Source: a virus
Lineage: Duplodnaviria; Caudoviricetes
Strand: one strand, 5' to 3'
Length of the DNA: 64,000 nucleotides
Virus record (IMG/VR): IMGVR_UViG_3300021387_000452
The position numbers and the translations under genes are program-made. The notes beneath the pieces are model-generated. The model saw nothing but the letters and a program-made list of their open reading frames with translations. It was not told the origin of the DNA and did no database searches. Within the stretch, counting starts at the first letter, position 1. Every line of letters starts with the position of its first letter. This document shows, one piece after another, positions 4,732 through 56,387 of the stretch.

Positions 4732-6045
4732 TTAAGCAAATTCTGGGTTGAGATCTCCAAGAATTAGATCAGACAAATAATCTTTAATTTCAGCTTCTGA
4801 TGTATCATAAAAAGACACTGGTGCGATATCAGTATCACTTGGCATAATGACTATCTCTTCATCTTTGTCATTGTAATATAACTCTGCAACCTCATCACCT
4901 CTGTAGAATAAATCTACAGCTTTATCAGTGTAGTGGTCGAAATAAAGTGTATGACCAAAGATCTTAATTAGAAAGCTTTGAACATTTCTAAGAAGATCTC
5001 TGCCAACATCACTTAAGAATCCCTCAACGACTATTGGAGAAGTCTGTCTTTTGCATTCGTGCTTATTTGCCCAGTATGCTCGTAATGCAGCTTCAGCATC
5101 AGCTTTTGTATCATAGTCAGCATCCCAATAATCTTTTCTATTCTTTTTTAGAATCTTCCATTTATTGCCAACTTTACGAATTACACCATCATCTTCAGAT
5201 TCAGTTAGCCATGATTTTGTGTGATCAACTGCAGTAACATTTTTATAATTAGCTCTGTTCTTTTTAAGCTCAGCGCCATTTATTATGATATTTATTAGAC
5301 TATGAAAGTCAAGCCACTTATCGACTATAATAACTCTACCATTACCATCACCAGCTAAGAACTTGCAAATATCGCCGTCAAAGTTATTTAGCTTTGGGTT
5401 AGATAGTACAATTGATTTAAACTTAGCATCTTTAAATTTATTGTACATTTCGTGATTGAATGATTTCACATACTTGTCATCTTCACTACGTGGAGTTATG
5501 TACAACTTACCTTCTACTGGAAATGGCTTATTAGTTTTACCGTCGACTAACATGGTTACAGATGGCTGTCCAGAAGACTCATTAAATCTCCACTTTGATT
5601 TACGATCAACTGACTCATTCATTCTATCAATGATTCTTTCTAAAGCATATCCAATACAAGAAAGAATAACTCTACGATTATCTCTAATAAGAGATATAGA
5701 ATCTCCAGTCTGAGGAACTATATTTCTTGTAAGAGGCTCACTTTCATCTCCGACTTTAATAGTCCATTCTTGAGTTTCCATATTGCAAATTATTCTGCAA
5801 TCTTCACCAAACATATTCTTTAGAGCGCTCCAATATTTCATATGTACTCTTTTTTGAATACGTCTATAAAATGTAGACATGTCAAATTTGCAAGTTGCAG
5901 TTTTGCCTCTAAAAGATACGTCAGTTAGATTACATGACTTACATAAATATGTAAAGACTTTCTCCTTTTCAGAAAAGTCTTCAGCCTCATTCATAACTTT
6001 AGCTAGAGATTCAAGTCTAGCAATTCGTCTTTCTATATTACTCAT
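4732..6045 (-). CDS. Multi-module hypothetical protein with N-terminal IERRIARLE tag (putative capsid-internal protein)
   Basis: True start probably ATG 6045 (GGGAG RBS at 6053-6057): MSNIERRIARLESLAKVMNEA; internal x-x-E|S/G sites. Confidence 0.65.
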   Translation of the reverse strand: MSNIERRIARLESLAKVMNEAEDFSEKEKVFTYLCKSCNLTDVSFRGKTATCKFDMSTFYRRIQKRVHMKYWSALKNMFGEDCRIICNMETQEWTIKVGDESEPLTRNIVPQTGDSISLIRDNRRVILSCIGYALERIIDRMNESVDRKSKWRFNESSGQPSVTMLVDGKTNKPFPVEGKLYITPRSEDDKYVKSFNHEMYNKFKDAKFKSIVLSNPKLNNFDGDICKFLAGDGNGRVIIVDKWLDFHSLINIIINGAELKKNRANYKNVTAVDHTKSWLTESEDDGVIRKVGNKWKILKKNRKDYWDADYDTKADAEAALRAYWANKHECKRQTSPIVVEGFLSDVGRDLLRNVQSFLIKIFGHTLYFDHYTDKAVDLFYRGDEVAELYYNDKDEEIVIMPSDTDIAPVSFYDTSEAEIKDYLSDLILGDLNPEFA

Positions 6046-6056
6046 ATGATATCTCC

Positions 6057-6656
6057 CTAGTCCCAGTATGGGTACATAGCTTTCAATAATGAATTGGCTA
6101 TCTCTTCTGCCCATCCGTTGAGCGTATCATCTGAATAATCATCAGCCTCAGCTGAATCTACTCTTAAGTAGCAGTCATTAAATTCAACATCTGACCCATC
6201 ATCATACATAACTGATGTAGAGCCATAGTCAACATATGTAGGCTCACCCTGGTAAAAAGATATGTCATATACCATTGACGTTGATAAAACAATCATAGCA
6301 TATAGTTCATTATCACTCTTCATACGAAGAGTATAGCATGGAGTCTCATCGTACATGTCTAATTCAACAGTGCCACTCTCACCTTTATCAATTGCACTAT
6401 CTTCGCCCCAGTGGCATCTAGAATAACGATTTTTTGGTAGCCAGATTTTTTCAGCTGCTGTAGAAAAGTCATCTATTTCAAGAAGATCTTTGACAATAAC
6501 ACCACATGCTTCTTTAGCTGAATTAGCAGTTCCTATGACTTCGCCGTCATAGTTCATTGAAGACCATCTAACAACTTCAACTAAATTACTGTTATCTTCT
6601 TTAAGAAGTCTTTCTAGCCTAGCAACTCTCTGTTCTAATGTAAGTTTTTTCTTCAT
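6057..6656 (-). CDS. Acidic hypothetical protein with N-terminal LEQRVARLE tag (putative capsid-internal protein)
   Basis: True start ATG 6656 (GGAGGA RBS at 6661-6666): MKKKLTLEQRVARLERLLKED; the longer ORF-track start overlaps the amidase. Confidence 0.7.
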   Translation of the reverse strand: MKKKLTLEQRVARLERLLKEDNSNLVEVVRWSSMNYDGEVIGTANSAKEACGVIVKDLLEIDDFSTAAEKIWLPKNRYSRCHWGEDSAIDKGESGTVELDMYDETPCYTLRMKSDNELYAMIVLSTSMVYDISFYQGEPTYVDYGSTSVMYDDGSDVEFNDCYLRVDSAEADDYSDDTLNGWAEEIANSLLKAMYPYWD

Positions 6657-6678
6657 GTTGTCCTCCATAATAGTATGA

Positions 6679-7527
6679 TTATAACCATTTGGCAATAACG
6701 CCTCGTTCCATATACTCGGCGACTTTTTTCTTAAACTCACTCCATCTTCTATCACCATCCTCTGGCGGCCATATAAGCGGCTGAGGGCACAGCTTGCCAG
6801 TTGCGTCCCCATGACGAATAATATGATCTAGCTTAATCTTGTAGACATTTGCTAGATATGCTACAGTCTTTGCAACGTTCTCTACTGCTTCATCTTTAAA
6901 GTACCAATCTTTATCTGTTGCCTTTTTACTATATTTAGAATGTTTCCATACGCATATGTCAACACCTAATGAATAATAATTACCTTTAAAATCATCACCT
7001 TCAGATTGCCATTTTAAATGATTTTTAGCAGCTAAATCATATCTCCAGTCGCTTGCTTTGTAGTTAGCGAGCTGCTCCAATGTCATCTCTTTACCGCTTT
7101 TTGGCTGCTGAACTTTACCACCACATACATGCCAAGCTGCATACTTCAATGGAACTGCAGAGTAAATATCTTTTTCATCAATATAGAAATGAGAAGATGC
7201 GCCTGTGTTATTCTTCATCGCTTTGCACATTTGCTTAGCACTTACATTCATACACGCAGTATAATGAACAACAATCCAAGATGGTGGGTTACTGAACTTC
7301 TTACCATGCGCATATTCATAAATCGGGTTATGAATCTTAATTTCAACAGGCTCTTTTTTAGCTAGAGTTGCTACAGTAGGCTCTGTCTCTGTCTTTGAAG
7401 TCTCAAATAAATCAGCGTCAGAAGTAGCAATCTCAGTTACTTTCTTCTCTATTCTAATGTCATTCATTACGCTTTTAAGAGCGCAACCAATCTTACTACA
7501 CCAATTTAACATTTGTATAAACCTCAA
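6679..7527 (-). CDS. N-acetylmuramoyl-L-alanine amidase (Amidase_2 type), probable endolysin
   Basis: IVVHYTA, ASSHFYID, AWH, IIRHGD and K.CP zinc-amidase motifs; exact start uncertain. Confidence 0.85.
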   Translation of the reverse strand: MRFIQMLNWCSKIGCALKSVMNDIRIEKKVTEIATSDADLFETSKTETEPTVATLAKKEPVEIKIHNPIYEYAHGKKFSNPPSWIVVHYTACMNVSAKQMCKAMKNNTGASSHFYIDEKDIYSAVPLKYAAWHVCGGKVQQPKSGKEMTLEQLANYKASDWRYDLAAKNHLKWQSEGDDFKGNYYSLGVDICVWKHSKYSKKATDKDWYFKDEAVENVAKTVAYLANVYKIKLDHIIRHGDATGKLCPQPLIWPPEDGDRRWSEFKKKVAEYMERGVIAKWL

Positions 7528-7544
7528 TCATTTCAGTATAAAAC

Positions 7545-7577
7545 AAAAGCGCGGCTGTAGAATAGCATACCGCGCTT
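7545..7577 (-). terminator. Intrinsic terminator
   Basis: aagcgcgg/ccgcgctt stem followed by a U-rich tract on minus strand. Confidence 0.65.
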
Positions 7578-7597
7578 ATAATTAGTAGCAATTACTT

Positions 7598-8305
7598 TTA
7601 ACGCCAACCATGATATAGACTATTGTGACGACGCTCTTGATCAGCTAAAGTTTCCCAATCACTGTCAGAGTCTCCCCACTGCCGTCGATATTTTGGTGCT
7701 TGGAACGTTGGAGATTTCTTAAGTGTAAACTCAAGAACTGGTAAATCAGTTCCGTCTCCAGAAGCATACTGATTAAAATCAATTATACATTTATGAATCT
7801 TACAGAATGCACCAATAATCTTTTTAATTTCAACTTCATTAGTTAGTGTGTAGCTATCGTTTGTATAATATGCAGACCTATCAGGAGTGTTTGGGTGCGC
7901 ATATCGGCCAGGTTTTCCAGGTATAGGTGCTACATCATTGGGGCCATAATCTTTTGGATCAATACTATCATCTGTGATAATATTATGTCTATCTGCAACA
8001 CTATCAAACTCCCAGTCACCAATTGTCATGTTTAATACCGTAACTCTGGGGTATCTACCATTTTCATAGTAGTGATAGTTTCCTTCTAAACTATTGCCTT
8101 TGGGATTTACTTTGCGGCTTTTGAAAAGCATATTTAACAAGATCATTAAATAATCTTTAGATGACTTTGGCTGTTCAGCAGCATCATCTTCAAGAAGCAT
8201 TTTCTCTAATTTTGCAACTCTTGACTCTAAAGATTCTTTTTTATTTTTAATGAGCTTACTTTCTAGCGCCTCAATACGACGCTCAAGTTGTTCTCTACTA
8301 ATCAT
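7598..8305 (-). CDS. Hypothetical protein with two tandem N-terminal LExRxxxLE tags (putative capsid-internal protein)
   Basis: MISREQLERRIEALESKLIKNKKESLESRVAKLEKMLLED; GGGAGG RBS. Confidence 0.7.
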   Translation of the reverse strand: MISREQLERRIEALESKLIKNKKESLESRVAKLEKMLLEDDAAEQPKSSKDYLMILLNMLFKSRKVNPKGNSLEGNYHYYENGRYPRVTVLNMTIGDWEFDSVADRHNIITDDSIDPKDYGPNDVAPIPGKPGRYAHPNTPDRSAYYTNDSYTLTNEVEIKKIIGAFCKIHKCIIDFNQYASGDGTDLPVLEFTLKKSPTFQAPKYRRQWGDSDSDWETLADQERRHNSLYHGWR

Positions 8306-8330
8306 CTATAACCTCCCTTAAGTATATTTG

Positions 8331-8807
8331 TCATTTATGCCAAAAGTGATGCGTAATATCATCAACTGATATGTTGTTACTATCTCTTTTTATAAAGTAT
8401 AATCTCTGATTTGTAGTTGGTGAATTTAGTGGGCCTAGCTCTTTTATGTATGGGCCTACTTTGATATAATCAAAGTATTGACAATAGTAACTAAGATCTA
8501 GTGCTGATTCACCACTATACCACCCAACTAGCAAGTCATAGTTATTTTTTATATGCTTTGCAAAACTAACAAGCGACGCTTTATCATTATCTCCACCAAG
8601 GAATAGAATGCATGTAATTCCGCTATGCTTATTTATAAGATCATCAATAATATCTGTAGTAAGCTCATCACCACAATCAGTCTGTAGATATGAGCTATGA
8701 CAGCCAGGACATCTATGCGGACACAATGATAAATTAATGCCTAAGCTAATTTCGTCCATAAGCTCTGCGAAGCAAACTGAAGTGTCTTCTGGTATGTACT
8801 TAATCAT
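8331..8807 (-). CDS. nrdG: Anaerobic ribonucleotide reductase activase (radical SAM)
   Basis: CPHRCPGCHS CxxxCxxC; DYIKVGPY...GPL...TTNQRLY; nrdD nearby. Confidence 0.9.
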   Translation of the reverse strand: MIKYIPEDTSVCFAELMDEISLGINLSLCPHRCPGCHSSYLQTDCGDELTTDIIDDLINKHSGITCILFLGGDNDKASLVSFAKHIKNNYDLLVGWYSGESALDLSYYCQYFDYIKVGPYIKELGPLNSPTTNQRLYFIKRDSNNISVDDITHHFWHK

Positions 8808-8812
8808 ATGTA

Positions 8813-9931
8813 TTAGTCTAACAACATTCTTTCAAGTCTACGAACTCTGATTTCTAATGACTCTTGTTTAGCACCGGCGGCTATTAATAACTTCTTAATC
8901 GTGGCTTTTTTGGTAAGTGATAATGCGCTGTCTCCATATTGTGTTGAAGCATTTACATCAGCACCACTACTAAGTAGTAGCTTAACTGTCTTTACAAGGC
9001 CATTATCGCAAGCCCATATAAGTGGTGTCCTATCTTGCCAACCACGAATGTTTATATCAGCGCCGCTATCAATTATAGCTTTAATTGCTGATAAGATAAG
9101 ATCAGATTCTTTTCTTGCTGAGCAAAGCTTAATCAGTACTGGCTCTCCATCGATTGATGTAATTTTATTAGCGTCAGCACCAGACTCAACAAGCTCAATC
9201 AGCTTAGTGAGTGTACTTTCACTAAATACTGAATTATTCATCACCAATTCTTGAGCTTGTGCAGTTTCACCAGTTATGCTACTAGAGTTACTATCATTAC
9301 TGTTTTTATCTGCCAACTTTGCTTTGAGTGGGTCTTGATATTTATCTACATCTTTGAATCGCTGAAGTATATAATCATCTGCAGTAAGCTTTATACCATT
9401 TTTATTGCAGTACTTCTTTAAAGCAGTCATGTCTCTGATGATACTATCTTTTGTAGAGAAGCGACTTTCTCCTGGCTTTCTATTACCGGGATCTTCATTG
9501 AATCTTACTATGATTTCTTTAATGTACTTAGATACATTTTTGATAGGTCTATCAACGCATTCTTCATGCTGGCGATCCATCCATACTCTCTTCTTCTTAC
9601 CGGTTACTGGGTCCTTAGCAAAGCCTGGTATTCTACCTTTGTCATTCTCTATATTTACAAAATCATTATATGAAAAGATATGATAATTTTCTGATAGTTT
9701 ATCACCATCTACTACAATAGTAGCAATAACATCTGAGCCGGTAAGCCACTTTATATTTTCAAGATTTCTACTTCTTGAAAAGTATATTACGTCTTTTTTA
9801 CCAGTGATCTTATTTGGCTCATACATGCCAGATGCTTGTAGAATATCACTAGACACCATGTAAGATACTAAGCTCGACAGTGATGTTGTATGATATAATG
9901 TACCTACTTGTTTTGATTCATTCTTTATCAT
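8813..9931 (-). CDS. Putative ADP-ribosyltransferase-like domain + ankyrin repeats, with C-terminal LEIRVRRLE tag
   Basis: N-terminal LYHTT...IYFSR...HEE pattern (ART-like, inferred); ankyrin repeats (GADINIRG..RTPLIWAC..G...VKLLL..GADVN); ends KQESLEIRVRRLERMLLD. Confidence 0.65.
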   Translation of the reverse strand: MIKNESKQVGTLYHTTSLSSLVSYMVSSDILQASGMYEPNKITGKKDVIYFSRSRNLENIKWLTGSDVIATIVVDGDKLSENYHIFSYNDFVNIENDKGRIPGFAKDPVTGKKKRVWMDRQHEECVDRPIKNVSKYIKEIIVRFNEDPGNRKPGESRFSTKDSIIRDMTALKKYCNKNGIKLTADDYILQRFKDVDKYQDPLKAKLADKNSNDSNSSSITGETAQAQELVMNNSVFSESTLTKLIELVESGADANKITSIDGEPVLIKLCSARKESDLILSAIKAIIDSGADINIRGWQDRTPLIWACDNGLVKTVKLLLSSGADVNASTQYGDSALSLTKKATIKKLLIAAGAKQESLEIRVRRLERMLLD

Positions 9932-9935
9932 TATC

Positions 9936-11393
9936 TTAATCCCAGTCTAAGTCAGCAAATCTACTTGAAATCTTATTTGATTGATACGCTTGCTCTTCAT
10001 CTTGCGGAACAGTGATGTCATATACTGGATCATATGATATATCATTAAATGCTCTTTCTAGAGATTGAACAATAATGTCCACAAGATTATCAATAGCAAA
10101 ATCAAATGCAGAGTCATTTTCAGAGTTACGAGAATCTAGCGCTCTTTTATATATAGCATCTGCATTACCAACGATCTTCTGAGCTTTATGGTTAACAGTT
10201 AGTGATATGACGCCATCAATTGCTTTAATTCTACAGAGATAAGAGTCAGAGCTTCCTGTTGGAGAGAACCAAAATGAAATACCAAGCTTCATCTTATTTC
10301 TCTTAATACATTTAATTAGATTGTTCTTGATGTTTGCTTTCTCTTTAAGAGATATGATGTACTTGATCTGATTCTTTAGCTTCTTTTGATAGAATTTATT
10401 GAATAACTGTCCACTTCTAGTTACAAAGAATTTATAGACAGCAGTTGGAGATTCACTATTTACTGTATAACCCATGTAATTAAGAACTCTGCCGACGATG
10501 GTCCATAGCTGAGGGCACTCATCTGGAGTTACAGATACAGCTCTTGATAGCATTTCTCTAGTGATATTAACATCAGCTTTAATATCTTTCATTAAAGCTT
10601 TCTTTACATTCGCAGATTTCTTAAGATCAACTTTGTGTGTCTCTTCTAAGTCTGACATCTGATGAGCGTTGAACTCTGTTAAAGTAAATAGCTTATATAA
10701 GACAATACTTATTGCATTGACACATCTAGAAGTGCTACCAAGAGTAAAGAAATCATTTGCCAAAAGCTCTCCAATCTCTGATCTATTAGCACAGCCAAGA
10801 TACGCGCACGTAGACAAGAAGCTTTCACCAACGCCAGGATTATTCTTTTGTTTTGCTAATCTGTCATCTTTACTCGTGTGATCAAATGCATGTGTTAGCT
10901 CATGCTCAATTGTAGAGCGAATATCGGCTTTTTTAATAGATTTCTCAATATTATCTAAATCATGAACTTTTACTAAGACAACAAGCTCATTAGTAGATGG
11001 AACAAAGAATCCACCAGTGTTATGAACATCTACATCTCCATGATATTTTTGCTGAAGCATTCTATTGCAATCATCTTCTCTGTCTACATCAATGAAGTAT
11101 GTCGAAATGTAAATGTCTCTGGTGTTAGAGCCACTATCTCCTGTAGAGACTTTGTTCTTAAGAAGGAAATATCCATTTCTATCTAACTGCCCTCTAACTT
11201 TGTCAGTATTTTCTTTAATGTAACTAAAGTAAAACTTTGTGATATTTGACAAGCTTAAAGAAGCAGATGAAACACTAATCGCTTCTAAATATCTTTTGCG
11301 TAAATATGTAGCCATAGTATTATAGTCCCCAGTAATATAAGAAGCTTTTAAGCTTCTTATATTACGTAAATGAAAATCACTCTTCAGCGCCAT
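9936..11393 (-). CDS. HExxH zincin-like metallopeptidase candidate
   Basis: STIEHELTHAFDH plus downstream TEFNAH. Confidence 0.55.
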   Translation of the reverse strand: MALKSDFHLRNIRSLKASYITGDYNTMATYLRKRYLEAISVSSASLSLSNITKFYFSYIKENTDKVRGQLDRNGYFLLKNKVSTGDSGSNTRDIYISTYFIDVDREDDCNRMLQQKYHGDVDVHNTGGFFVPSTNELVVLVKVHDLDNIEKSIKKADIRSTIEHELTHAFDHTSKDDRLAKQKNNPGVGESFLSTCAYLGCANRSEIGELLANDFFTLGSTSRCVNAISIVLYKLFTLTEFNAHQMSDLEETHKVDLKKSANVKKALMKDIKADVNITREMLSRAVSVTPDECPQLWTIVGRVLNYMGYTVNSESPTAVYKFFVTRSGQLFNKFYQKKLKNQIKYIISLKEKANIKNNLIKCIKRNKMKLGISFWFSPTGSSDSYLCRIKAIDGVISLTVNHKAQKIVGNADAIYKRALDSRNSENDSAFDFAIDNLVDIIVQSLERAFNDISYDPVYDITVPQDEEQAYQSNKISSRFADLDWD

Positions 11394-12399
11394 GTTCTTT
11401 TAATAAAGACACATACTTAGCAACACGAGCATCTTTCTGATCCCATTTTAACGCTCTCTGTAAAAGAGTTTCACCGTACATATCTGGTACATTTGGATCT
11501 ATGCCAATTTCTAGTAAATATTCAACTACTTCTAGATTACCATCAGTCATAAATCTAGAAGCATCCCATAAAAGATCACTTGTTGGCTTTAGATTAGTGT
11601 TGTCTAATATGAGTTTTACTAGTGCTAAATTACCATTTACACACAAACGTCCAACATCTTTCAAGTTTACTTTAGCACCATTAACCAATAGTTCTTTTAC
11701 AGTATTATCTTTTGCGCGACTATTATTAAGACCAGTGAGAGCAGCTGCTAGTGGAGTAACTCCATTTCGTTTGTCATACGCATTTGGATCAGCGCCTGCT
11801 TTTAATAGCAACTTAACTATAGGATATGCAACCTGCATAGCCGCGCTACATATTGCTGGAGTACCTTGATATGATTCTACATTTGGATCAACACCAGACT
11901 TTAGTAGCTTTCTAACAGTTGCAGCATCACCATCATCAATTGCTTTAAGTAACTGATCGCTACCACCAATTCCAGATAAGTTAACACCGTCTACGACTGG
12001 TAAGTCTACATCTAGATATTCCATTGGCTCGTCTAAAGCATCCCATATTGATTTAATCTTACCATCTTTTGCTTGTAGAACACAGTACTTTTTGCGTGGG
12101 TCATTTTTATTTATGTAGAAATAAAACCCACCGTCTAAGTTGCGATTTCTAATAGTGTCTGCAAATACTTGCTCACCATTGCGTCTTCTTTCTGCAATAC
12201 CCCAGCCGGTGCTTTTACCATATTTCACTGCTGCTTTATATGAAGTTATTCTATACACTGTCCACTCTGAATCTTCATATAATACTATAACACCGTCATT
12301 ATCAGCTTCAAATGCTCGATGCTTATTACACTTATTAAGTCTTGCTTCAAGAAGCTCTACACGCTTCTCTAATGATCTATAACGCTCATTCATTATCAT
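11377..12399 (-). CDS. Ankyrin-repeat protein with an N-terminal phage domain and LEKRVELLE tag
   Basis: About 5 ankyrin repeats (GVDPNV..GTPA, GADPNA..GVTPL, GIDPNV..GETLL); N domain W.VY.ITSY.AA..YG..T.W resembles PcfJ-like domains of large phages (from recall). Confidence 0.75.
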   Translation of the reverse strand: MIMNERYRSLEKRVELLEARLNKCNKHRAFEADNDGVIVLYEDSEWTVYRITSYKAAVKYGKSTGWGIAERRRNGEQVFADTIRNRNLDGGFYFYINKNDPRKKYCVLQAKDGKIKSIWDALDEPMEYLDVDLPVVDGVNLSGIGGSDQLLKAIDDGDAATVRKLLKSGVDPNVESYQGTPAICSAAMQVAYPIVKLLLKAGADPNAYDKRNGVTPLAAALTGLNNSRAKDNTVKELLVNGAKVNLKDVGRLCVNGNLALVKLILDNTNLKPTSDLLWDASRFMTDGNLEVVEYLLEIGIDPNVPDMYGETLLQRALKWDQKDARVAKYVSLLKEHGAEE

Positions 12400-12453
12400 T
12401 CTCCAAAGTAAATTAAGTAAAACACACTACAATATAATAACTATAGATATGTC

Positions 12454-12711
12454 TTACCCAATCATATCTGAGGTGTCGTCAATGTAGCTACTGAGATCAT
12501 ACAGCTTAATTCTCTTCTCAAGAGCTTCCATATAAGAACGCATTCCATTAAGCTGTTCCTGAAAAATACTCTCACATGCATGTGGTACTCTGTCATTTAG
12601 CACAGCATTTTCCAACTTCTCAGTACGAAGTTTTAGCTGCCAATACTCTGCTTTTAAACGACCTTTCCAATCCAACGATCCCATTAGTTTTACTGTGTCT
12701 GCTAATTCCAT
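12454..12711 (-). CDS. Small helical phage protein (crAss001_48-like pattern)
   Basis: Start probably ATG 12711 (GGAGA RBS); RLKAEY.QL..R..KL...QL..M..Y...LE.RI pattern. Confidence 0.6.
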   Translation of the reverse strand: MELADTVKLMGSLDWKGRLKAEYWQLKLRTEKLENAVLNDRVPHACESIFQEQLNGMRSYMEALEKRIKLYDLSSYIDDTSDMIG

Positions 12712-12730
12712 ACACTTTTCTCCATAAAAT

Positions 12731-12767
12731 AAAAGCCATTGTAGATTATATACACCCACAATGGCTT
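12731..12767 (-). terminator. nrdD terminator with TGTATATAAT in its loop
   Basis: aagccattgt/acaatggctt stem, 15 nt loop containing tataca (12749-12754), U tract on minus strand. Confidence 0.7.
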
Positions 12768-12786
12768 AGTTATTAACAAATGGTGT

Positions 12787-14805
12787 TTACTTTGCCTTAT
12801 ATCTGTTAAACTTTACATACTCACCAGAGTCATCTTCTTCAACTCTATTAAATACTCTTGTTTCAAACTCTCGCTTTCTTCCATCATTCCAATTTTTAAC
12901 TGCTGTGAGATACCCTATAATTCTAGTATAGAAATTCAAGTTCTTGCTATGACAAGATGGGCACTCATTAATTGGAGCATTAACTATCTTACCACAATCC
13001 TTGCATTCACTCATCGGAATATTGAATGTTAGATAGCTGCACCCAACCTGCGCGGCATATTCAAGTAGATGTCTATATTGTTTTGAAGATAAGTGAGAAT
13101 CTAAATTGATGTGCGCAGCTGAGCCACCATCTAGATAATCACCGATATAATCTCTTCCGTGCATTTTAATCTTATCAAGAACTGATAGTAATGGATCATT
13201 TGGCTTAAATACATAACTTGCGTATAAGTTTGTATCTTCAGGAACCCAATAACCATCATCTCGATCCCAATTGTAGTTCTTGATAGCGAGTGACTCAGCA
13301 GGCACCTGTTCTGTATTAAATACTAAGTGATGTTTGCTTGTTTTATCTTTATGCAATTCATTCTGTTCTTTGAAGAATGAGAATATCTCTTGACAGAATT
13401 TTGCATATTTATCATTAACATCACATCTAATACCCAGAAATTCAGCAGCTTGGTTTAATCCATTTAGCCCTAAAGTTAAATACTGCTTGTTTAGATCAAT
13501 GAATCCTGCACGATATGCTGGCAATAGATTTGCGTCATACATATCCCAAAGCAATTCATTATAGGCATGGTGGTATTTATACACTCTATCAAGTAACTTT
13601 GAGAGGTATTTCTTTAATGATGGGTAACATGAATCATCAAAAGTAAACATCTCTTCTCGCTTCTCAGATTCTTTTCTATACCAGCCTTGAATCAAGCGAT
13701 TAAGATTAAATGTAATTACTGATTTACTTCCAGTTTGTATTCCTACGTTCCCATTAGTAAAGTTAAACTCTTTTGTTTGTAGTTTGTTTTTCAACCGACA
13801 ACAGCTACTTAATGAATCAACAGTGTCTGAGATGTATGTGAAGAATGAATGACCTCTTGCATACTCATCATATACGAATTGCGCCATCTCTTCATCTTCA
13901 AACTTACCATCTTTGTATAGCAGTGTAACAGTCTCAACTGGGAATGTAAGAATAGTCTTTAGTCGTTCTGCATTAAACCACTTCATGAATTCCATTTGAA
14001 TCCATTTAAGTGATTCCCAGTCAGGTCGCGTACCATCTGGAAAATAAAATTCTCCAAACATGCCTTCAAAGAATGGCTTGTCAAAATATGAGAAGTTTAC
14101 AAACGCAGACTGAAAGCCACGGGCAGCTGCAGGTTGGTTTATCGTGTAGATAATCTGCTGCCAATATTGTTGGATCTCTTTTAAGATTGTTCTAGGCTCA
14201 CCACTTAGAGGTCTCTCAATAATTTCATCTTGACGAAGATAAAAATCATCTCCCCACTCTTTCTTGCAGAAATAAGTGAAATAAAGTAAAGCCTCGCTTA
14301 CTGCAACTGCTCCAGCAAACTGAGAACTAATTGCGAAAATCATATTACAAAATATACCACAGAATGACTTTAAATTCTTTGGTGAAGCTGATAAACCACC
14401 AAGGCCTTTAATTCCATCCATTAAAAATGGGTACATTGTAACTGAAACGCAATATGGAGCTACAGCACCAGCAAATGAAGATTCATCGTGCTTATAAATA
14501 ACATGATCTTCAAGATCTCTAATATATCGTTTTGCATTAAAGTCTGGATAAAGCTCTCTAAGCTTATTAACAACCATTGCTCGTGAGATTCTAATGTTGT
14601 CTGCTTTATGCGCTTCAGCATTTAAGATAGCTATGTTCTTATTTGCTACATTAGAGTTATCGTCCACTGTACTATTAGCAGCATTTGAAGCCTGCTTAAA
14701 TTTGTTAATAAACTCAATTTTATTTCTTACAAACTCATCCTCCACACTATCGTTCACTGAAAGCTCGATGATTTCACTTGAATTTGATACATTATCTACA
14801 ATCAT
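12787..14805 (-). CDS. nrdD: Anaerobic (class III) ribonucleoside-triphosphate reductase
   Basis: LSSCCRL, CKDC...CPSC metal site, glycyl-radical loop YTRIIGYL; no ATP-cone. Confidence 0.95.
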   Translation of the reverse strand: MIVDNVSNSSEIIELSVNDSVEDEFVRNKIEFINKFKQASNAANSTVDDNSNVANKNIAILNAEAHKADNIRISRAMVVNKLRELYPDFNAKRYIRDLEDHVIYKHDESSFAGAVAPYCVSVTMYPFLMDGIKGLGGLSASPKNLKSFCGIFCNMIFAISSQFAGAVAVSEALLYFTYFCKKEWGDDFYLRQDEIIERPLSGEPRTILKEIQQYWQQIIYTINQPAAARGFQSAFVNFSYFDKPFFEGMFGEFYFPDGTRPDWESLKWIQMEFMKWFNAERLKTILTFPVETVTLLYKDGKFEDEEMAQFVYDEYARGHSFFTYISDTVDSLSSCCRLKNKLQTKEFNFTNGNVGIQTGSKSVITFNLNRLIQGWYRKESEKREEMFTFDDSCYPSLKKYLSKLLDRVYKYHHAYNELLWDMYDANLLPAYRAGFIDLNKQYLTLGLNGLNQAAEFLGIRCDVNDKYAKFCQEIFSFFKEQNELHKDKTSKHHLVFNTEQVPAESLAIKNYNWDRDDGYWVPEDTNLYASYVFKPNDPLLSVLDKIKMHGRDYIGDYLDGGSAAHINLDSHLSSKQYRHLLEYAAQVGCSYLTFNIPMSECKDCGKIVNAPINECPSCHSKNLNFYTRIIGYLTAVKNWNDGRKREFETRVFNRVEEDDSGEYVKFNRYKAK

Positions 14806-14832
14806 AAAACAAATTCCCCTAAACGCAGATTA

Positions 14833-15126
14833 CTATGCACGTCGATGACGCTCTTTTCTCTTCTTTGTATTATCTTTTGATATCTCTGGAATTGTATCAT
14901 CATACGGTCTAAGTCTACGATGCTCAATAGAGATAAGATAATCTACTCTAGGATTTACTTCATAAAGACCGTACCAAGTTGTATTTTCATTAGTCAAAGT
15001 GTGAACATATTCTAAAGCTTCTTCTTTTGTAGTAAAGTCCATTGTTATTTGTTTATATGGAAACTTTTCTATCATTGCTCTAAATATGCTAGGTTCTATC
15101 TTTGTCTCTTTTGGTTTTCTTGCCAT
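14833..15126 (-). CDS. Hypothetical protein
   Basis: Probable start ATG 15126 (MARKPK, GGAG RBS). Confidence 0.65.
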   Translation of the reverse strand: MARKPKETKIEPSIFRAMIEKFPYKQITMDFTTKEEALEYVHTLTNENTTWYGLYEVNPRVDYLISIEHRRLRPYDDTIPEISKDNTKKRKERHRRA

Positions 15127-16349: not shown

Positions 16350-16567
16350 TAATCCCGAACGTATGATACATGGTCACATATATAGCTAACATACTCATCA
16401 AGAGATTTCTTGTCAACGCCATCTATGTGACTTTCAATGAAATGCTTGACTGGAGATCTTAGCATCTCTCGCTTAGTCAAGTGCGGATCAACACCGTTCA
16501 GCTCAATAGTGAGATACGTTTCAATGTCATACTTATTTAATACGTAATACATGAACGGCTTCATCAT
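16349..16567 (-). CDS. Small hypothetical protein
   Basis: 72 aa, packed between tk and the next ORF. Confidence 0.6.
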   Translation of the reverse strand: MMKPFMYYVLNKYDIETYLTIELNGVDPHLTKREMLRSPVKHFIESHIDGVDKKSLDEYVSYICDHVSYVRD

Positions 16568-16570
16568 AAT

Positions 16571-17119
16571 TCACTCTCTATAGCATCTGTAACAAACAGC
16601 TTTGTAATTATCCCATCCTGGATCTATAACACTCTCAGTCGTGTCTGGAGTTACTCTCTTATTGAATGAAGCGTGTTTGCCGCACGTTTGGCAAATAGTC
16701 TTCACTTCAATTATCTCATCGGCTAATTCAAATAGCCGCTTTGAAGCTGGAAACAAATGAGTAGTAAAATCAGTTCTTAAGCCAAAGCACAGCACATCAA
16801 TTTCTCTATCAACTGAGAAATTTCTTAATTCATCAATCTGTGGCTCAGTTAAGAACTGACACTCATCAATGAGAATTACATCTGCATTATTTATCAATTC
16901 ACTATAGTCATAGATACTATCTTCTTTATGTATAACAATGTCTGCTTTTCTTGGAGGAACTTGAGCTCTTGTTTCAATAAGCTCACTTCTAGTGTCTAGT
17001 GCTGGTTTTACAGTGACTACATTCCAACCAGCGGTGTCATAGTTATGTGCTATCGCAAGTAGCATCATAGTTTTACTACTGCTTACAGTGCCATGATAGA
17101 ATATAAGTTTTGCTGCCAT
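16571..17119 (-). CDS. tdk: Thymidine kinase
   Basis: GTVSSSKT P-loop, KPALDTR, ILIDECQFL, FGLRTDF, C..C and Y.AVC..C zinc ligands. Confidence 0.93.
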   Translation of the reverse strand: MAAKLIFYHGTVSSSKTMMLLAIAHNYDTAGWNVVTVKPALDTRSELIETRAQVPPRKADIVIHKEDSIYDYSELINNADVILIDECQFLTEPQIDELRNFSVDREIDVLCFGLRTDFTTHLFPASKRLFELADEIIEVKTICQTCGKHASFNKRVTPDTTESVIDPGWDNYKAVCYRCYRE

Positions 17120-17127
17120 AAAGCCCT

Positions 17128-17921: not shown

Positions 17922-17942
17922 AACTAAGCTCCTACAAAAATA

Positions 17943-41916: not shown

Positions 41917-44424
41917 TTAAACAACGCCCTCTTCTGCAAGAGTTGTAGCTGTTGAATAGATTGTGTAGGTGAGATCGAAGATTTCTGCTGACTGGTAGAA
42001 AATGAGTGAGATGTTACCTTTAATCATACGATTTGCAATCTCTTCATCAGAGGTTGTATCGGTACCCATCTTAACATCATATTCTCTTAATGCGTTAGCA
42101 GCCTTCAAAGGCTCAAGAATATAATTGGTAACGTAGTTTTTCCAAGTGTCCCAAAGAACAACACTGTTGATTGAGAATTTCAATTTGTCAGTATATTCAT
42201 CAATGGTGCTACGAATATAAACAAGTGTACGGGCAATATGAGCAGCGTTAAGATCTGTGTAACCAGCGTTTAGAGTTTCATTTCCGAAGATCTGAATACC
42301 TCTTGTGCCAGTATCATAGATTGGATTGATTCTGCACTGAACTAGCTGATCTCGCTGAGCTTTTGTCTTTGGATTCTTTACGATTTCGCAAGTCTCAGGA
42401 AGTGTTCCGTATTGATCACCAGCAACTGGATAATGAACACCACGTTCACGATATGAAGTCATGATGTTATTTATTACTAAGTTTGCTGGAGCAGTTAGAA
42501 CTTTAACAGACTTGGCTAAGCCGCTCTCAATCTGTGTGCATTGCTGCTTGAGCCATGAATAATATATTTCAAGATAGAAGCTCTGAATTGAATAGTCAAC
42601 TGTGTTTGTAACGCCATATTCCCAGAGATCTGCGTAATCTTTCTGTGAAGTTACCCAATCACAAGCATCATCTACTTCAAATGGTGTAGTATCAGCAATG
42701 CTCTTGCAGAATGGAGTAGAAAGAATAACTGTGCAGTCCTTGCGTTCACATGCAATCTGTTTTAGATTATAATGAAGTGCTCTACGCTCTTCATGGTTTG
42801 GAGCATAAACACCATCATCTGAACCAGCTCTATCTTCATCTTCCATATCACGGGAAACTGGAGCAGTTAGATCTGCCATTAGGCAACCAACGTATTTCTT
42901 GGCTTTGTACTGCTCAAGAGCTGCGATATAGTCATTCATTGAAACTTTGAATAAAGGCTCGCTAACTGTTACAGGCTGCTCTAGCTCTACTGGATTTCTT
43001 AATGGAGCTGCCCAGTTACCGCTATCTAAACAATATTTCTCAAGTAAAGCGTTAACAATTGAATTAGCTCCACGATCTTTAACTGGACAAGCACCAGCAG
43101 TGTCTTTATCGATGAGCTCAAATCGAACTGCAGTACCAAGTGATGAGTTTAGATTGTTTACCACACTCTGATTTGTTGTAGTCTGCTCAAGTTTGATCTT
43201 TGCAGAGCCAAGAATGTTCTTGCCACCATTATTCTTAACTGCAACGTTTAGATAGTAAACATGAAGTGAATATGGCTTTGTCTGTGAAAGATAAACATCA
43301 AATGTAAGATCTTCAGCCATTGATGAGTAAGCAATCAATGAGTGAGATGCTCTTGTAACACCGTTAATGTTAAAGACTTTAAGTGCACCGCTCTCGGTTA
43401 GCTTACCGTCTAATGTGCTCTTTAGTGTCTCTTTAGTTTCATCAGCAGCTAACTCATGTGTAACTGTGATTTCCAAATAACCGCCACTGAATTTGTAGTC
43501 GATCTTCTTAGGAACTCTTGGATCTGGTGTAGCTTCGATAGTAAACGCAGTTTTAAGATCATTGAGTGCAGAATTCAATAGAATGTACTCATTCTCAAGT
43601 TTAGTAGTACTCTTCAAAGTAAATGAAACTTCTTTTTCAACTGATTCATCATACTTAATAGTAGTGCTATCTTTTGATTCAGTTACTGCTTTAACTTTAA
43701 TAGGCTCTGCGCCCCAAGTTGGGTCTACATAACCAAACGCTACTATATTGGTGAAGCCAAAATCTTCAAGAAGTGTGATCTCAAGATCAAATTTACCATT
43801 TGCTTTTGCAACGCACTTCCATGTGTATTTACCAGTAAGATCAACGCCGTCACTTGGATATGGATTACTATCTGGGCTGCTTGGTTCTACATCATCAGTG
43901 CCTGCTACAGAAAATGGCTCTGAGTAAAGTACAAGGCTACCAACACCTGGTGTAGGTGTTTCACCATAACCTCTTAACTTGTCTACAATATATTTATTGT
44001 TGACATCTTTAATTACCCATTTACGTGAACCAATTGGTTCATTTTCTAACTGGATTTCAGTTTCATTACCAGCTGTATCATCCCGACGAACTTGATCTGC
44101 TAAGAATGTGAACTCATAAATACCAGACTCACCAGAATTTACTTTAGCAACATAACAAGATGTACCGTTACCAACTACTTGCATAATGCTGTAGAGATCA
44201 ATGTACTTTTTAGGGTCGATACGAGGATCACCGAAATTAGCAATTAAGCTCTCTGTGTCACGAATAAGAATTGGGCTGTATAACTTATCAGCATTCTTCT
44301 CTAACTTTGCTATTGGTGTAATAGCAGCAAGAAGAGGTGTGAAGCTGACTATATTTGGAACGACAGATAAGTCTTTTACTCTTGACTTAAGATGCGCTGA
44401 CTCGCGTGTCTCATTTCTAATCAT
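41917..44424 (-). CDS. Tail sheath protein (T4 gp18-like)
   Basis: FGDP near N-terminus; C-terminal PVAG..YG, RDQL...RINPI.....GI.IFGNETL......L....IARTL. Confidence 0.9.
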   Translation of the reverse strand: MIRNETRESAHLKSRVKDLSVVPNIVSFTPLLAAITPIAKLEKNADKLYSPILIRDTESLIANFGDPRIDPKKYIDLYSIMQVVGNGTSCYVAKVNSGESGIYEFTFLADQVRRDDTAGNETEIQLENEPIGSRKWVIKDVNNKYIVDKLRGYGETPTPGVGSLVLYSEPFSVAGTDDVEPSSPDSNPYPSDGVDLTGKYTWKCVAKANGKFDLEITLLEDFGFTNIVAFGYVDPTWGAEPIKVKAVTESKDSTTIKYDESVEKEVSFTLKSTTKLENEYILLNSALNDLKTAFTIEATPDPRVPKKIDYKFSGGYLEITVTHELAADETKETLKSTLDGKLTESGALKVFNINGVTRASHSLIAYSSMAEDLTFDVYLSQTKPYSLHVYYLNVAVKNNGGKNILGSAKIKLEQTTTNQSVVNNLNSSLGTAVRFELIDKDTAGACPVKDRGANSIVNALLEKYCLDSGNWAAPLRNPVELEQPVTVSEPLFKVSMNDYIAALEQYKAKKYVGCLMADLTAPVSRDMEDEDRAGSDDGVYAPNHEERRALHYNLKQIACERKDCTVILSTPFCKSIADTTPFEVDDACDWVTSQKDYADLWEYGVTNTVDYSIQSFYLEIYYSWLKQQCTQIESGLAKSVKVLTAPANLVINNIMTSYRERGVHYPVAGDQYGTLPETCEIVKNPKTKAQRDQLVQCRINPIYDTGTRGIQIFGNETLNAGYTDLNAAHIARTLVYIRSTIDEYTDKLKFSINSVVLWDTWKNYVTNYILEPLKAANALREYDVKMGTDTTSDEEIANRMIKGNISLIFYQSAEIFDLTYTIYSTATTLAEEGVV

Positions 44425-47798: not shown

Positions 47799-48083
47799 TT
47801 AAAATTCTTTTCCGTTCTCTCTATCTTCAAAAATAGAGCTGAAGCGATCATTAGCTTCTTTTGAGAAAATATTTTCACATACTTTAAGTGCCATATTTAC
47901 ATCGCTATAATTAGCAATATCACTATATGCTAATGTCTTACATAGATCATTTACAATCTGTCTAATACTATCTGCTGCTCTGTATACAGCATTAGCAACT
48001 GGATCAGCTGCTTCATTCTTAGCAGACTTACGATTCATCATTCTTTCTAATCTTGCAATTCTAGCCTCTAATTTCTTATCCAT
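47799..48083 (-). CDS. Small protein with N-terminal LEARIARLE tag (putative capsid-internal protein)
   Basis: MDKKLEARIARLERMMNRKSAKNEA. Confidence 0.7.
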   Translation of the reverse strand: MDKKLEARIARLERMMNRKSAKNEAADPVANAVYRAADSIRQIVNDLCKTLAYSDIANYSDVNMALKVCENIFSKEANDRFSSIFEDRENGKEF

Positions 48084-53237: not shown

Positions 53238-53241
53238 ACTA

Positions 53242-53705: not shown

Positions 53706-54212
53706 TTAGCGATTAAATTTACGGCAAGCTCTGCGACGGCGTGATTCTGTAAAGCGTCTTTCAAGAGCTGCCAAACGATCCTCTAATGAAGGCTGATATG
53801 ATTCTTCAGCTTCAGCTTCTTCCTCTTCAGCTGGAGCCTCTTCTCCACCTTCTTCTCCGCCCTCTTCTTCAGGAGGCATTTCATCTTCAGCTGGAGCCTC
53901 TTCTCCACCTTCTTCACCTCCATCTTCTTCACCTTCACCATCAACAATTGCTAGAGCTTTTTCAAATCTAGCAATAATATCTTCTAGACGAGCAAGAAGT
54001 AAATCAGCTTCAGAAGTATCATTCTCAGTATCAGTCTCTTCAGCTTCTGTAACTAGAGATTCATTTTTAACTTCATCTGTAGCTTCAGCTTTAACTTCTT
54101 CAGTTACAGCCTCTGTAGCTTCAGACTTAGCTGATTCATTTTTAACTTCTTCAGCTTCTGGATTCTCACGAAGCTTACGCATAATTGATTTGATTTCATT
54201 TGTTCTCAACAT
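53706..54212 (-). CDS. Acidic prohead core / scaffold-like protein with C-terminal LEDRLAALE tag
   Basis: Very Glu-rich, two VKNES sites, near capsid genes; ends SLEDRLAALERRFTESRRRR. Confidence 0.65.
   Translation of the reverse strand: MLRTNEIKSIMRKLRENPEAEEVKNESAKSEATEAVTEEVKAEATDEVKNESLVTEAEETDTENDTSEADLLLARLEDIIARFEKALAIVDGEGEEDGGEEGGEEAPAEDEMPPEEEGGEEGGEEAPAEEEEAEAEESYQPSLEDRLAALERRFTESRRRRACRKFNR
53824..53915. repeat. 32 bp direct repeat, 60 bp period, inside the scaffold gene (EEGGEEAPAE)
   Basis: tcttcagctggagcctcttctccaccttcttc at 53824 and 53884. Confidence 0.85.
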
Positions 54213-54239: not shown

Positions 54240-54893
54240 TTATCTAGTAGCGTAAAATAGCCCTAATACTGTACCAAGCTTTTCTTCTAAAGCGGCTTTT
54301 TCTGTAATCCCCTCTTGCTTCAGCTCTGATCCATTAGTCTCAATAGGAGATCCAGTTATCTTTACTTTTGATCGTATTTCACCCTCTATGCACTTTACTA
54401 AAGCAACTGTATAATCTATAACCCAATTAACAAAATCCTCTGTCATCGTGTCTATAGACTTATCTGTAATTGCTTCTATAGTCCATGGAGAATTACCGCC
54501 GTCAATATACACAGTGTCTCCAACTAATCTAAAGCCTACTTGGTTTAAGTCAGCCTGAACTGAATCTGTATAGTAATTCCACAAAGCGCAATTGACTAAT
54601 GAATTACTACCATTGATTACATAAAAGCCCTGATTGATTGCTTTATCAATATTGATATTTTCATCATTTTCAGCTGATGAAGTTACTCTGACTACAGCAA
54701 ATATTCTGCCATGCTCAAATTGGACCGTCTTAGTATATGTAGTTATGAATTCCATATTATTAAGATATGGGACCACTTTTCGTATAGCAGTTGATATTTG
54801 CTTGTTTATCATCTCGTCAGTAATCGCGAGATCTACAACTGGATAGCCTAATCTAACTTTTACTGTCTCAAGGATATCACATCTATTAAGCAT
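54240..54893 (-). CDS. Head-tail adaptor / neck protein (T4 gp13-like)
   Basis: VKVRLGYPVVDLAITDEMI; WV.DY..ALVK...GEIRSK......P...NG.EL..EG..E. Confidence 0.8.
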   Translation of the reverse strand: MLNRCDILETVKVRLGYPVVDLAITDEMINKQISTAIRKVVPYLNNMEFITTYTKTVQFEHGRIFAVVRVTSSAENDENINIDKAINQGFYVINGSNSLVNCALWNYYTDSVQADLNQVGFRLVGDTVYIDGGNSPWTIEAITDKSIDTMTEDFVNWVIDYTVALVKCIEGEIRSKVKITGSPIETNGSELKQEGITEKAALEEKLGTVLGLFYATR

Positions 54894-55416
54894 TTGATTG
54901 ATGTTCCTGTAAGAATGAGATCACATCATCTTTCTTTAGCTTGCAGCTTTCACCAGTGATCTCTTTATATTTTGCTTTTAACTGCTTAAGTGTCCAAGTA
55001 GAATAATCTTCTACTTCTTCAGCTTTAGCTTCTTCAACTGGCTCTTTAGCAGTTTCACTCTCTGCAGCTGGCTCTTCTTTAGGCGCTTGCTCTTCAACTT
55101 TAGCGTCTTCAACTGAAGCTTCTTTTTCTTTAGTCAGCTCTTCTACTTTTTCAGGTTCAGCTGGAGCCTCTTCTTTAACTGGCTCTTCTTTTGGAGTGTC
55201 TTTTATCTCTGGCTTTTTATCTTCTTTAACTGGCGCTTTATCTTCATTCTTTTTATTATCAACAGGCTTAATACAAAGTGCTTTAGCTAATGAAAGATAA
55301 TCTTCATACTCAAGATTAAGAACATTTGAACCTGGATTAAGAAGATATGACTTACCATTTGTAGCATAAACTGTAGTTGGCTTTTTTGAATTAAGCTTTA
55401 ACTTTAACTGAATCAT
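54886..55416 (-). CDS. Protein with acidic linker and C-terminal Rho-N/HeH-like helical module
   Basis: DYSTWTLKQLKAKYKEITG...KLKKDDVISFL. Confidence 0.6.
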   Translation of the reverse strand: MIQLKLKLNSKKPTTVYATNGKSYLLNPGSNVLNLEYEDYLSLAKALCIKPVDNKKNEDKAPVKEDKKPEIKDTPKEEPVKEEAPAEPEKVEELTKEKEASVEDAKVEEQAPKEEPAAESETAKEPVEEAKAEEVEDYSTWTLKQLKAKYKEITGESCKLKKDDVISFLQEHQSNA

Positions 55417-55433
55417 ACGTAAACTCCTATAAA

Positions 55434-56387
55434 TTAATAAAGTCTCTTAAGTCTACGATTTATATATAAACTTTCAAGACGTGAGAGTCGCTTCTCAAGA
55501 TCAGCTAGATATTCTTCTTGCTCATCTGGCTCAACTGGCTCTTCATAAGTGTCTGTTTTATCGCTCTCAAGACTACCGGCTACAGCGTCTTTAAGCTGAT
55601 CAACTTCTCTATCAGCCATTACTTCTTTTGCAGCGTCGACATCAATACAGAGCTCATTCTCAATCTCTTCATCAGACTGAAGTAAACCAACTTTTGCAGA
55701 AATACCTTTGGCTAAATCAACAACTACACAATCATCAACTAATGAAATAACAGCCATTAAGTTATCATTGTCATCATAGCACTCAACAACAGAATCAGAA
55801 AAGTCTTCATTCTTACTTGATTTCCAACTGTAATGCTCACGAAGCATACCTTCAATCTTTCTAAGAATAAAAGCTCTCTTTTCTCTAATAGATTCCATAG
55901 TAGGACGCTCACCAGTCTCGATAGCGTCATTTAACTCATCAAGCTTATCATCAAACATTCTACCACTCTCCGTTGCCTTATTATTAATATAGTCAATTAA
56001 GGCATTCTCTGCTTCTTTATCAGAATTGAAGCCCTTTGACTTGATTAAAAATCTATCTGATATTCTATTCTGCAGCTCATACTGAACAAGCTTAGTAGCA
56101 AGCTGATTAAAGTCACTAATAGATTTCACTTTCTTAGTGCTCTCTTTATCCTGTTCTTCTTTGCTTAGTATATCTGTTATGTCTATATTGTCATTAAATA
56201 AGAGCAATTCTAATGAAATAGACGCATCATTAAATGTAGGTGTAATTTCTATAGACAGCTCACCAGAGTTGCTAAATCTTGTTGGGCAAGATACAGATAA
56301 AGTATTTTTATTAATCAGCTTTGCTGGAAATAGCTCAGAGTTACCGATTGCAGATTCCCATATCTTTTTCCAATCTATATCTGGCAT
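55434..56387 (-). CDS. Acidic head-region protein with C-terminal LEKRLSRLE tag
   Basis: Directly downstream of the MCP; ends LADLEKRLSRLESLYINRRLKRLY. Confidence 0.65.
   Translation of the reverse strand: MPDIDWKKIWESAIGNSELFPAKLINKNTLSVSCPTRFSNSGELSIEITPTFNDASISLELLLFNDNIDITDILSKEEQDKESTKKVKSISDFNQLATKLVQYELQNRISDRFLIKSKGFNSDKEAENALIDYINNKATESGRMFDDKLDELNDAIETGERPTMESIREKRAFILRKIEGMLREHYSWKSSKNEDFSDSVVECYDDNDNLMAVISLVDDCVVVDLAKGISAKVGLLQSDEEIENELCIDVDAAKEVMADREVDQLKDAVAGSLESDKTDTYEEPVEPDEQEEYLADLEKRLSRLESLYINRRLKRLY

Follow-up and report, generated by a model that had tools for sequence, protein, structure and literature searches.

In bacteriophage T4, the internal proteins IPII and IPIII, as well as foreign proteins fused to the same signal, are loaded into the prohead core by a capsid-targeting sequence (CTS), an N-terminal peptide of ∼10 residues (Mullaney & Black 1996; PMC9958956, PMC9026906). 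The CTS (MKTYQEFIAE in IPII and IPIII, with a CTS also on IPI and Alt) is removed by the prohead protease gp21 (PMC9958956, PMC9026906). Alt is an ADP-ribosyltransferase that is packaged, injected, and processed at both termini (PMC9026906), and the localization of T4 proteins to the core is still called mysterious in a review of the T4 head (PMC9958956). In the phiKZ-like phage SPN3US, gp47 and gp53/54 carry long N-terminal propeptides and the protease gp245 carries a C-terminal propeptide (PMC5694885, PMC10052503). Here we analyze a 9-residue motif, [LI]ExR[IVL]xxLE, that recurs near protein termini in a 64,000-nucleotide stretch of phage DNA (Duplodnaviria; Caudoviricetes; IMG/VR record IMGVR_UViG_3300021387_000452; hereafter, the window). 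We refer to copies of the motif as tags, to an N-terminal segment holding one as a leader, and to the tagged proteins other than those of the head as cargo. Judged from its sequence context, the motif is probably the core of a two-part T4-type capsid-targeting propeptide composed of a docking helix and a head-protease site.

The strict motif occurs nine times in the 58 proteins of the window (20,432 residues). When residues were shuffled within each protein (2000 rounds), it appeared 0.0075 times on average and never more than once. Motifs with permuted columns, applied to the real window proteins, averaged 0.023 matches and likewise never exceeded one, and the other five reading frames of the window contained no strict match. 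None of the nine copies is farther than 26 residues from a terminus, a zone that comprises 17% of the residues, whereas generic amphipathic heptads other than the tags are terminal in only 32% of cases. These results bear out most of a preliminary description of this DNA: its nine full copies and one weaker copy in the protease were all recovered at the same positions in the coding frame of the minus strand, and the motif is more terminal than generic coiled-coil heptads. Its claim of terminal enrichment also held, with one adjustment of position. The starts of the genes with N-terminal tags were corrected to ATG codons at 6045, 6656, 8305, 12393, and 48083, each following a GGAG-type ribosome site, and the N-terminal tags thus begin at residues 4-8 of their proteins; the C-terminal copies end 5-17 residues ahead of the stop. 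The codons vary among the copies (TTA/CTT, GAA/GAG, AGA/CGT/CGA), and orthologous copies show synonymous differences only, as for LEDRLAALE of the scaffold in the window and in the related contig G002, which indicates that the protein motif is under selection. A DNA-level element, such as a promoter or terminator at gene boundaries, is ruled out by the varied codons, the synonymous changes between orthologues, and the empty alternative frames.

The comparison set consisted of the window and three stitched related contigs, G002 (103 kb), G003 (156 kb), and G004 (204 kb, 95% complete), which together with the window are called the four genomes below. A degenerate DNA pattern of the motif matched 14, 21, and 16 times in G002, G003, and G004, respectively, with 0-2 matches for a reversed control. 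A tag hidden Markov model (HMM) yielded 61 matches above the best decoy score among 668 open reading frames (ORFs) of the four genomes; 42 matches were N-terminal, 12 were C-terminal, and seven were internal, four of the last being protease orthologues. The tagged proteins number 9 in the window, 13 in G002, 20 in G003, and 14 in G004, and weakened variants beyond these HMM counts exist (for example, LQKRLEKLE). The replication enzymes and the tail and baseplate proteins of the window lack the tag, as had been noted for enzymes and tail proteins from the window sequence. From 1.84 billion representative proteins, a profile built on 36 N-terminal leaders retrieved 69 at E values up to 0.001, and in 56 of the 69 the match begins in the first 20 residues; 3 of 17 inspected sequences from this search were unrelated repetitive coiled-coil proteins. 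A search with a 30-aa tag by tblastn against 50,697 GenBank phages gave no match. Separately, the window's own genome has at least one further tagged gene, a 250-aa ORF on the G001 contig, about 17 kb past the window end (locus L049), with the sequence ..ILEKRLTRLENLIKNE↓SADD (arrows here and below mark candidate cleavage positions).

The phage is, by the sequence of its genes, T4-type in its head machinery. All window genes are on the minus strand, marked (-) below, and the G+C content is ∼36%. The S77 family gp21-like protease (58003-59043 (-)) matches PF03420 over residues 33-167 (E 8.5e-11) and is 26% identical to T4 gp21 (E 9e-8, tblastn), and the gp23-like major capsid protein (MCP; 56514-58010 (-)) matches PF07068 (E 1.3e-36), with the profile starting at residue 75. 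The window also encodes tail proteins, among them a gp19-like tail tube protein, as well as a neck protein homologue, DNA polymerase A, NrdD, a SNF2 helicase, and a FEN nuclease. The closest cultured phages are those of the SP-15 group (Listeria LIS04, Bacillus HSE3, and Streptococcus GXN1), with MCP identity of ∼30%. Uncultured relatives are represented by nine IMG/VR contigs and by at least 164 MCP clusters, the best 120 of these 164 all having at least 63% identity; the relatives' contigs reach 290 kb, and the window's own MCP lies on a 221.5-kb contig. A metagenome scan contributed the loci L041 (MCP identity 86%) and L046 (67%), a second IMG/VR scan for more distant members of the clade gave no additional locus, and megablast with 14 kb of the window gave no match. 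Together, the phage and these relatives form a clade of uncultured myoviruses from the rumen and gut, with large genomes (about 200-290 kb) and heads of the T4 type.

Three head proteins carry the same helix as the cargo, and the preliminary description was right to attribute the motif to the scaffold, the gp21-like protease, and the product of the gene after the MCP gene, the copies being conserved in relatives. In the acidic scaffold-like protein (53706-54212 (-)), the C-terminal copy LEDRLAALE (53760-53786 (-)) is followed by the basic tail RRFTESRRRRACRKFNR, and the C-terminus reads LE[DEN]R[LI]A[AD]LERRFTESRRR in every relative examined; VKNE↓S occurs in the window protein at residues 22-26 and 47-51. 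The gene after the MCP gene encodes a 317-aa protein, p317 (55434-56387 (-)), with the C-terminal copy LEKRLSRLE (55473-55499 (-)), a basic tail, and a conserved internal KNE at residue 192. Its C-terminus in relatives follows the pattern L[ESL][KR]R[LIV][ST][RK]LE[SN]L[YF]I.R+L+, and the ESM Atlas offered nothing usable for p317. The weaker copy in the protease, FESRIRTLD followed by NE↓I (58411-58437 (-)), is not at the protein end; it occupies residues 203-211 of 346, at the end of the S77 protease domain. In the relatives FESRIR[TIL]LD[NK]E stands exactly where homology to the T4 gp21 and SP-15-type proteases stops, near residue 201, and the tail beyond carries LD[NK]E and KFNE. The SP-15 group protease is fused to a long coiled-coil region, and this group has no copy of the motif. 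The MCP has its own amphipathic helix in the propeptide region, ending in VKNE (57849-57860 (-); residues 51-54), where the propeptide is likely to be cleaved (VKNE↓S); the corresponding [VM]KNE↓S (residues 51-55) lies ∼20 residues ahead of the Pfam gp23 profile and is kept in the four genomes. The helix is retained in the scaffold, protease, and p317 of all relatives examined (MCP identity 61-86%), and the Glu sites of the MCP, the scaffold (one or two KNE↓S), p317, and the protease tail are conserved in the four genomes.

The second part of the leader is a Glu site placed 2-12 residues past the helix. The helix has the consensus L-E-x-R-[IVL]-x-[RK]-L-E-[RK]-[LM]-[LI] and is basic, amphipathic, and two heptads long; the leader as a whole follows M-x(2-6)-LExRIARLE(R/K)LL...KNE, with [RK]-[LM]-[LIFM] after the helix. 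The commonest site is [KM]NE, and the remainder are of the form hydrophobic-x-E (h-x-E). NE is found within 20 residues after 28 of 57 tags, compared with 8% for background. Within the first 45 residues of proteins there are 30 KNE tripeptides versus 11.9 expected, and the control tripeptides KDE, KQE, KNQ, KND, and ENK exhibit no N-terminal excess. Among the 65 KNE sites in the four proteomes, 19 trail a tag by no more than 25 residues (about 0.6 expected) and another 17 are in the MCP, the scaffold, p317, or a protein start of the form MIKNE, for a total of ∼36. The Glu also marks a boundary in three cargo families, whose conserved body has its first residue at P1' (..E↓[SA]KQVGTLYH, ..E↓GKRDQEIL, and ..E↓GGASGHM). 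The leader appears, from these sequences, to end in a site that matches the presumed head-protease sites of the MCP and scaffold. The Glu site proposed earlier after the N-terminal tags was thus upheld, with the commonest form now recognized as [KM]NE; in the window only VMNE↓A and AKNE↓A are of this kind, LLKE↓D, MLLE↓D, and RAFE↓A being h-x-E sites. For the KQE↓S and EE↓S sites suggested ahead of C-terminal tags, the backing consists of a conserved EES[YF] in the scaffold.

Two other types of protein start were observed. A second shared leader, MLF[VLI]NE.Y......[IL]TNE↓, is free of the helix and occurs in G002 (14038-14907 and 16493-18046; L029) and G004 (185676-186797 and 195947-196825; L019), in proteins that belong to no Pfam family. 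In the window, an 835-aa protein without a Pfam match (41917-44424 (-)) begins with MIRNE↓TRESAHL, the G002 orthologue beginning with MIKNE↓T; this is the same minimal KNE start as that of a tagged protein with ankyrin repeats (8813-9931), described next.

The label can occupy either end of the same protein, as had been proposed. In one family (alignment A2), built on an ADP-ribosyltransferase (ART)-fold domain and ankyrin repeats with the same KQVGTLYH body, the helix is N-terminal in three phages and C-terminal in the window. The window member (8813-9931 (-)) has its N-terminus cut down to MIKNE↓S, starting MIKNE↓SKQVG (9917-9931), and carries the tag LEIRVRRLE at residues 359-367 of 372 (8831-8857 (-)). 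Some tagged proteins have tandem tags or one tag at each end. Modules are also fused in frame via tag+KNE junctions, in G003 (136791-137420; L027) and in the database proteins P0130, P0138, and P0148, the fused modules being separate tagged genes in other phages. P0148, for example, consists of an unrelated module, ..RIKRLEKVMSRKNE↓Q, and then a module like the 94-aa protein of the window (47799-48083). Such a layout is as expected of a polyprotein that would be cut at its junctions.

The ART-fold assignment comes from structure prediction. An AF2 model of residues 1-180 of the 8813-9931 protein (pLDDT 71, pTM 0.69) aligned with Tpt1 (7yw4) at Z 10.4 and a root-mean-square deviation of 2.7 Å over 107 aligned residues, with KptA at Z 8.2, and with DarT at Z 8.0/7.7/7.4 (VIA-align); ART folds made up almost the whole of the top 50 matches. 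Foldseek top matches were likewise nearly all ART folds (E about 1e-2). His14, Arg53, Tyr83, and Glu123/Glu124 are invariant in four homologues of the domain and are candidate members of an H-Y-E or R-H-R-R catalytic set. A PDB profile search with this family gave no match, and the full-length model retrieved ankyrin-repeat matches only. On the basis of the model, the N-terminal domain is predicted to be an ADP-ribosyltransferase fold.

The remaining tagged proteins of the window form a varied set. A 437-aa protein (4732-6045) carries IERRIARLE at residues 4-12 (6010-6036 (-)), followed by VMNE↓A, and a G003 relative that shares its C-terminal domain also has an N-terminal tag. In the 199-aa protein (6057-6656), LEQRVARLE at residues 7-15 (6612-6638 (-)) precedes LLKE↓D, and the database relative P0142 has kept the tag. 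The 235-aa protein (7598-8305) has tandem tags (8204-8287 (-)), LERRIEALE (8261-8287) and LESRVAKLE (8204-8230), then MLLE↓D, with both tags kept in the relatives P0121 and P0133. Next to the ART-fold protein, a 485-aa protein with an HExxH motif (HELTH, metalloprotease-like; 9936-11393 (-)) is a probable cargo; its leader is degenerate and ends YLE↓AIS, but a full N-terminal tag is present in the G003 orthologue, and ..[IL]E↓AI[SG]S is kept in three of three orthologues. An ankyrin protein (11377-12393) carries LEKRVELLE at residues 8-16 (12346-12372 (-)), then RAFE↓A, and the 94-aa protein carries LEARIARLE at residues 5-13 (48045-48071 (-)), then AKNE↓A, with an acidic mature part (isoelectric point (pI) 4.55). 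The bearers had been described as eight unrelated proteins, and this must be amended for two of them (8813-9931 and 11377-12393), which share ankyrin repeats. Most cargo proteins have no Pfam or PHROGs match, the recurrent features being ankyrin repeats and DUF6273; both databases were searched with the 437-, 199-, 235-, 94-, 317-, and 485-aa proteins and the scaffold, and no match was obtained for any of these.

The main cargo cluster (4732-12393) is interrupted by two genes, an untagged Amidase_2 (N-acetylmuramoyl-L-alanine amidase) gene (6679-7467 (-)) and an NrdG-like radical-SAM activase gene (8331-8807). A hairpin with a 14-bp stem and a T-run (12733-12767 (-)) lies upstream of a small gene (12454-12711). 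Between this hairpin and the first genes of the cluster, the coding strand has no other terminator-like site, and a weak terminator-like site with a 5-bp stem is found inside the cluster (6142-6155). A sigma-70 promoter and terminator scan of 4400-13000 gave nothing above shuffled sequences, and no T4 late promoter (TATAAATA) was found upstream of the tagged genes. The sequence ATATCTA-N(5-7)-TATAG occurs ∼30 nt upstream of the protease gene, the p317 gene, and their orthologues; it is a possible late-promoter element, for which the cases are too few to be convincing.

Among the described systems, the T4 CTS offers the closest likeness. In both cases a short terminal propeptide is borne by unrelated proteins (non-essential ones in T4, non-structural ones here) of phages with a gp23-like MCP and an S77 protease, a Glu site (a candidate site in the clade) resembling that of the MCP closes the propeptide, and the ART-fold cargo parallels Alt; on the T4 side, Alt and gp21 are also processed C-terminally. 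In contrast to the T4 peptide, the leader of this clade has no sequence similarity to MKTYQEFIAE, its helix of ∼12-14 residues is separate from the cut site within a leader of 20-30 residues, and the site is [KM]NE rather than L/I-x-E. Moreover, the clade places its tag internally as well as at either terminus and repeats the helix on the scaffold, protease, and p317. Cargo genes number 10-20 or more per genome, and in-frame fusion has joined some of them into multi-module proteins. In the phiKZ-like phages too, propeptides are inferred to target proteins to the prohead, a gp21-related protease cuts after Glu, and the protease loses a C-terminal piece, but their propeptides span 20-254 residues and have no common short motif, whereas the motif of the clade is common to cargo and scaffold. 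The scaffold and protease of herpesviruses share a C-terminal coat-binding tail, which brings its bearers into the procapsid and is cut off at maturation, and the P22 scaffold has a C-terminal helix-turn-helix. As general background, these resemble the present case in placing one short terminal element on the scaffold and, in herpesviruses, the protease; they differ in serving assembly proteins only, with no variable cargo, and their sequences are unrelated. Encapsulins use a short, portable cargo-loading peptide, at either terminus and not removed, to bring unrelated cargo into an HK97-fold shell, and they have no portal, scaffold, or protease. The window, unlike encapsulins, encodes a tail, a scaffold, and a protease, and its tag is helical, linked to a protease site, and common to the scaffold; on the strength of these genes and the protease-site link, an encapsulin cargo-loading peptide was rejected. 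A literature search turned up no account of a coiled-coil capsid tag.

In the sequence of events that we propose, the helix would dock its bearer in the assembling prohead core beside the scaffold, protease, and p317, all of which have the same helix. The Glu site would be cut by the gp21-family (S77) prohead protease; the same site appears to end the MCP propeptide and to be cut in the scaffold. After closure of the shell, the protease would remove the N-terminal tags from the cargo and sever its own tagged tail, releasing the catalytic domain. The cargo, including ART-fold/ankyrin proteins, other ankyrin proteins, the HExxH protein, small acidic proteins, and many proteins of no assigned family, would remain inside the head and probably accompany the DNA into the next host, like T4 Alt and the internal proteins. 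The partner of the helix may be the scaffold coiled coil or the MCP. The hydrophobic positions 0, 4, 7, and 11 of the helix fit a d-a-d-a coiled-coil pattern, with Glu at e (1 and 8) and Arg at g (3), and Arg or Lys is common at -4. As judged from the sequence, R3 and E8' would be placed for the g-e' salt bridges of a parallel coiled coil, so that any two copies, cargo or scaffold, would be self-complementary. It is possible, and we put it forward tentatively, that the terminal helix of the scaffold serves as the template that cargo mimics, with bearers co-assembling through a self-complementary mini coiled coil until released by the protease; such mimicry may cover copies at either end or between polyprotein modules. 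Of the overall account given in the preliminary description, a conserved and portable label linked to a Glu site stands, while pairing with the scaffold, cutting of the C-terminal tags, packaging, and injection are steps that we infer.

Several observations weigh against a capsid-targeting propeptide. About half of the tags are without NE and would rely on the less specific h-x-E sites, and the C-terminal tags have no consistent upstream Glu site and may stay attached. Two heptads are short for a coiled coil stable alone. Some homologues of the cargo have no recognizable tag, and the main cargo cluster sits among nucleotide-metabolism genes, downstream of the terminator-hairpin cassette at 12733-12767, a setting in which the cargo genes may not be co-expressed late with the head genes. 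Finally, the SP-15-like phages LIS04, GXN1, and HSE3 yielded 0-1 pattern matches per genome, not above chance, and this nearest cultured group is without the motif.

The same features can be set against other explanations. Capsid loading might proceed through a different receptor, the helix binding the inner face or N-terminal propeptide of the MCP or, by charge, the poly-Glu body of the scaffold, in which case scaffold, protease, and cargo would share the helix because they compete for one shell site. The charges agree with this idea, the tags (pI about 10-11) being strongly basic and the scaffold body poly-acidic, as do the C-terminal placement of the scaffold and p317 copies with basic tails and the amphipathic helix of the MCP propeptide that ends in the same VKNE; the small cargo proteins minus the tag have pI values of 4.0-5.2. 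The coat-binding elements of the P22 and herpesvirus scaffolds also lie at the C-terminus, which fits such a receptor. A surface-binding peptide, however, needs no such e/g pattern as that of the tags, where Glu at e and Arg at g (R3-E8' and Arg or Lys at -4 to E1') suits a parallel self-complementary coiled coil, and we regard the alternative receptor as rather unlikely.

Leaving the capsid aside, the helix could be a generic cytoplasmic oligomerization zipper, dimeric or trimeric, with the NE sites coincidental, for short leucine zippers are common, some proteins carry two tags, and there are faint Pfam matches to trimerization and coiled-coil families (DUF1192 and TolA_bind_tri). A zipper would leave unexplained the strict terminal placement at either end, the copies in scaffold and protease, the ∼30-fold excess of KNE directly past the tags in the same sequence as the MCP maturation site, the bodies that start at P1', and the in-frame fusions via tag+KNE, and we judge it improbable. 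Terminal degrons and localization tags are known at both termini, so the tag might instead direct proteins to the tail lumen, the baseplate, or an intracellular assembly, or mark them for degradation by a host or phage protease. Yet the only tagged proteins of known role act in head assembly (scaffold and prohead protease), the tail and baseplate genes of the window are untagged, and the linked site matches the MCP propeptide boundary, which makes such a destination or fate very improbable indeed. The capsid-targeting propeptide, with its docking helix and head-protease site, accommodates these features best as a probable T4-type device.

If cargo does mimic the scaffold, the way in which a capsid-targeting sequence reaches the core would have its first mechanistic explanation, and such mimicry may extend to T4. 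In T4 (NC_000866; L038 9118-9927), the scaffold gp22 starts MLKEQLIAEA, gp67 starts MEGLIEAIK, and gp21 starts MNEPQLLIET, and inspection of the T4 genome placed the MKTYQEFIAE starts of IPII and IPIII at 65689-65718 and 66386-66415 (W04). The T4 CTS resembles the N-terminus of gp22 (..Q.[FL]IAE), a hint that scaffold mimicry is general. The clade analyzed here is an unusually legible case, in that the helix stands apart from the cut site, is also present on scaffold and protease, and can occupy either terminus. Its tag marks a large and changing set of candidate cargo that includes an ART-fold/ankyrin protein akin to T4 Alt. The receptor question becomes directly testable with peptides and recombinant head proteins, and the two-part leader gives a rule, readable from sequence, by which proteins probably injected by many uncultured phages of the gut and rumen can be listed.

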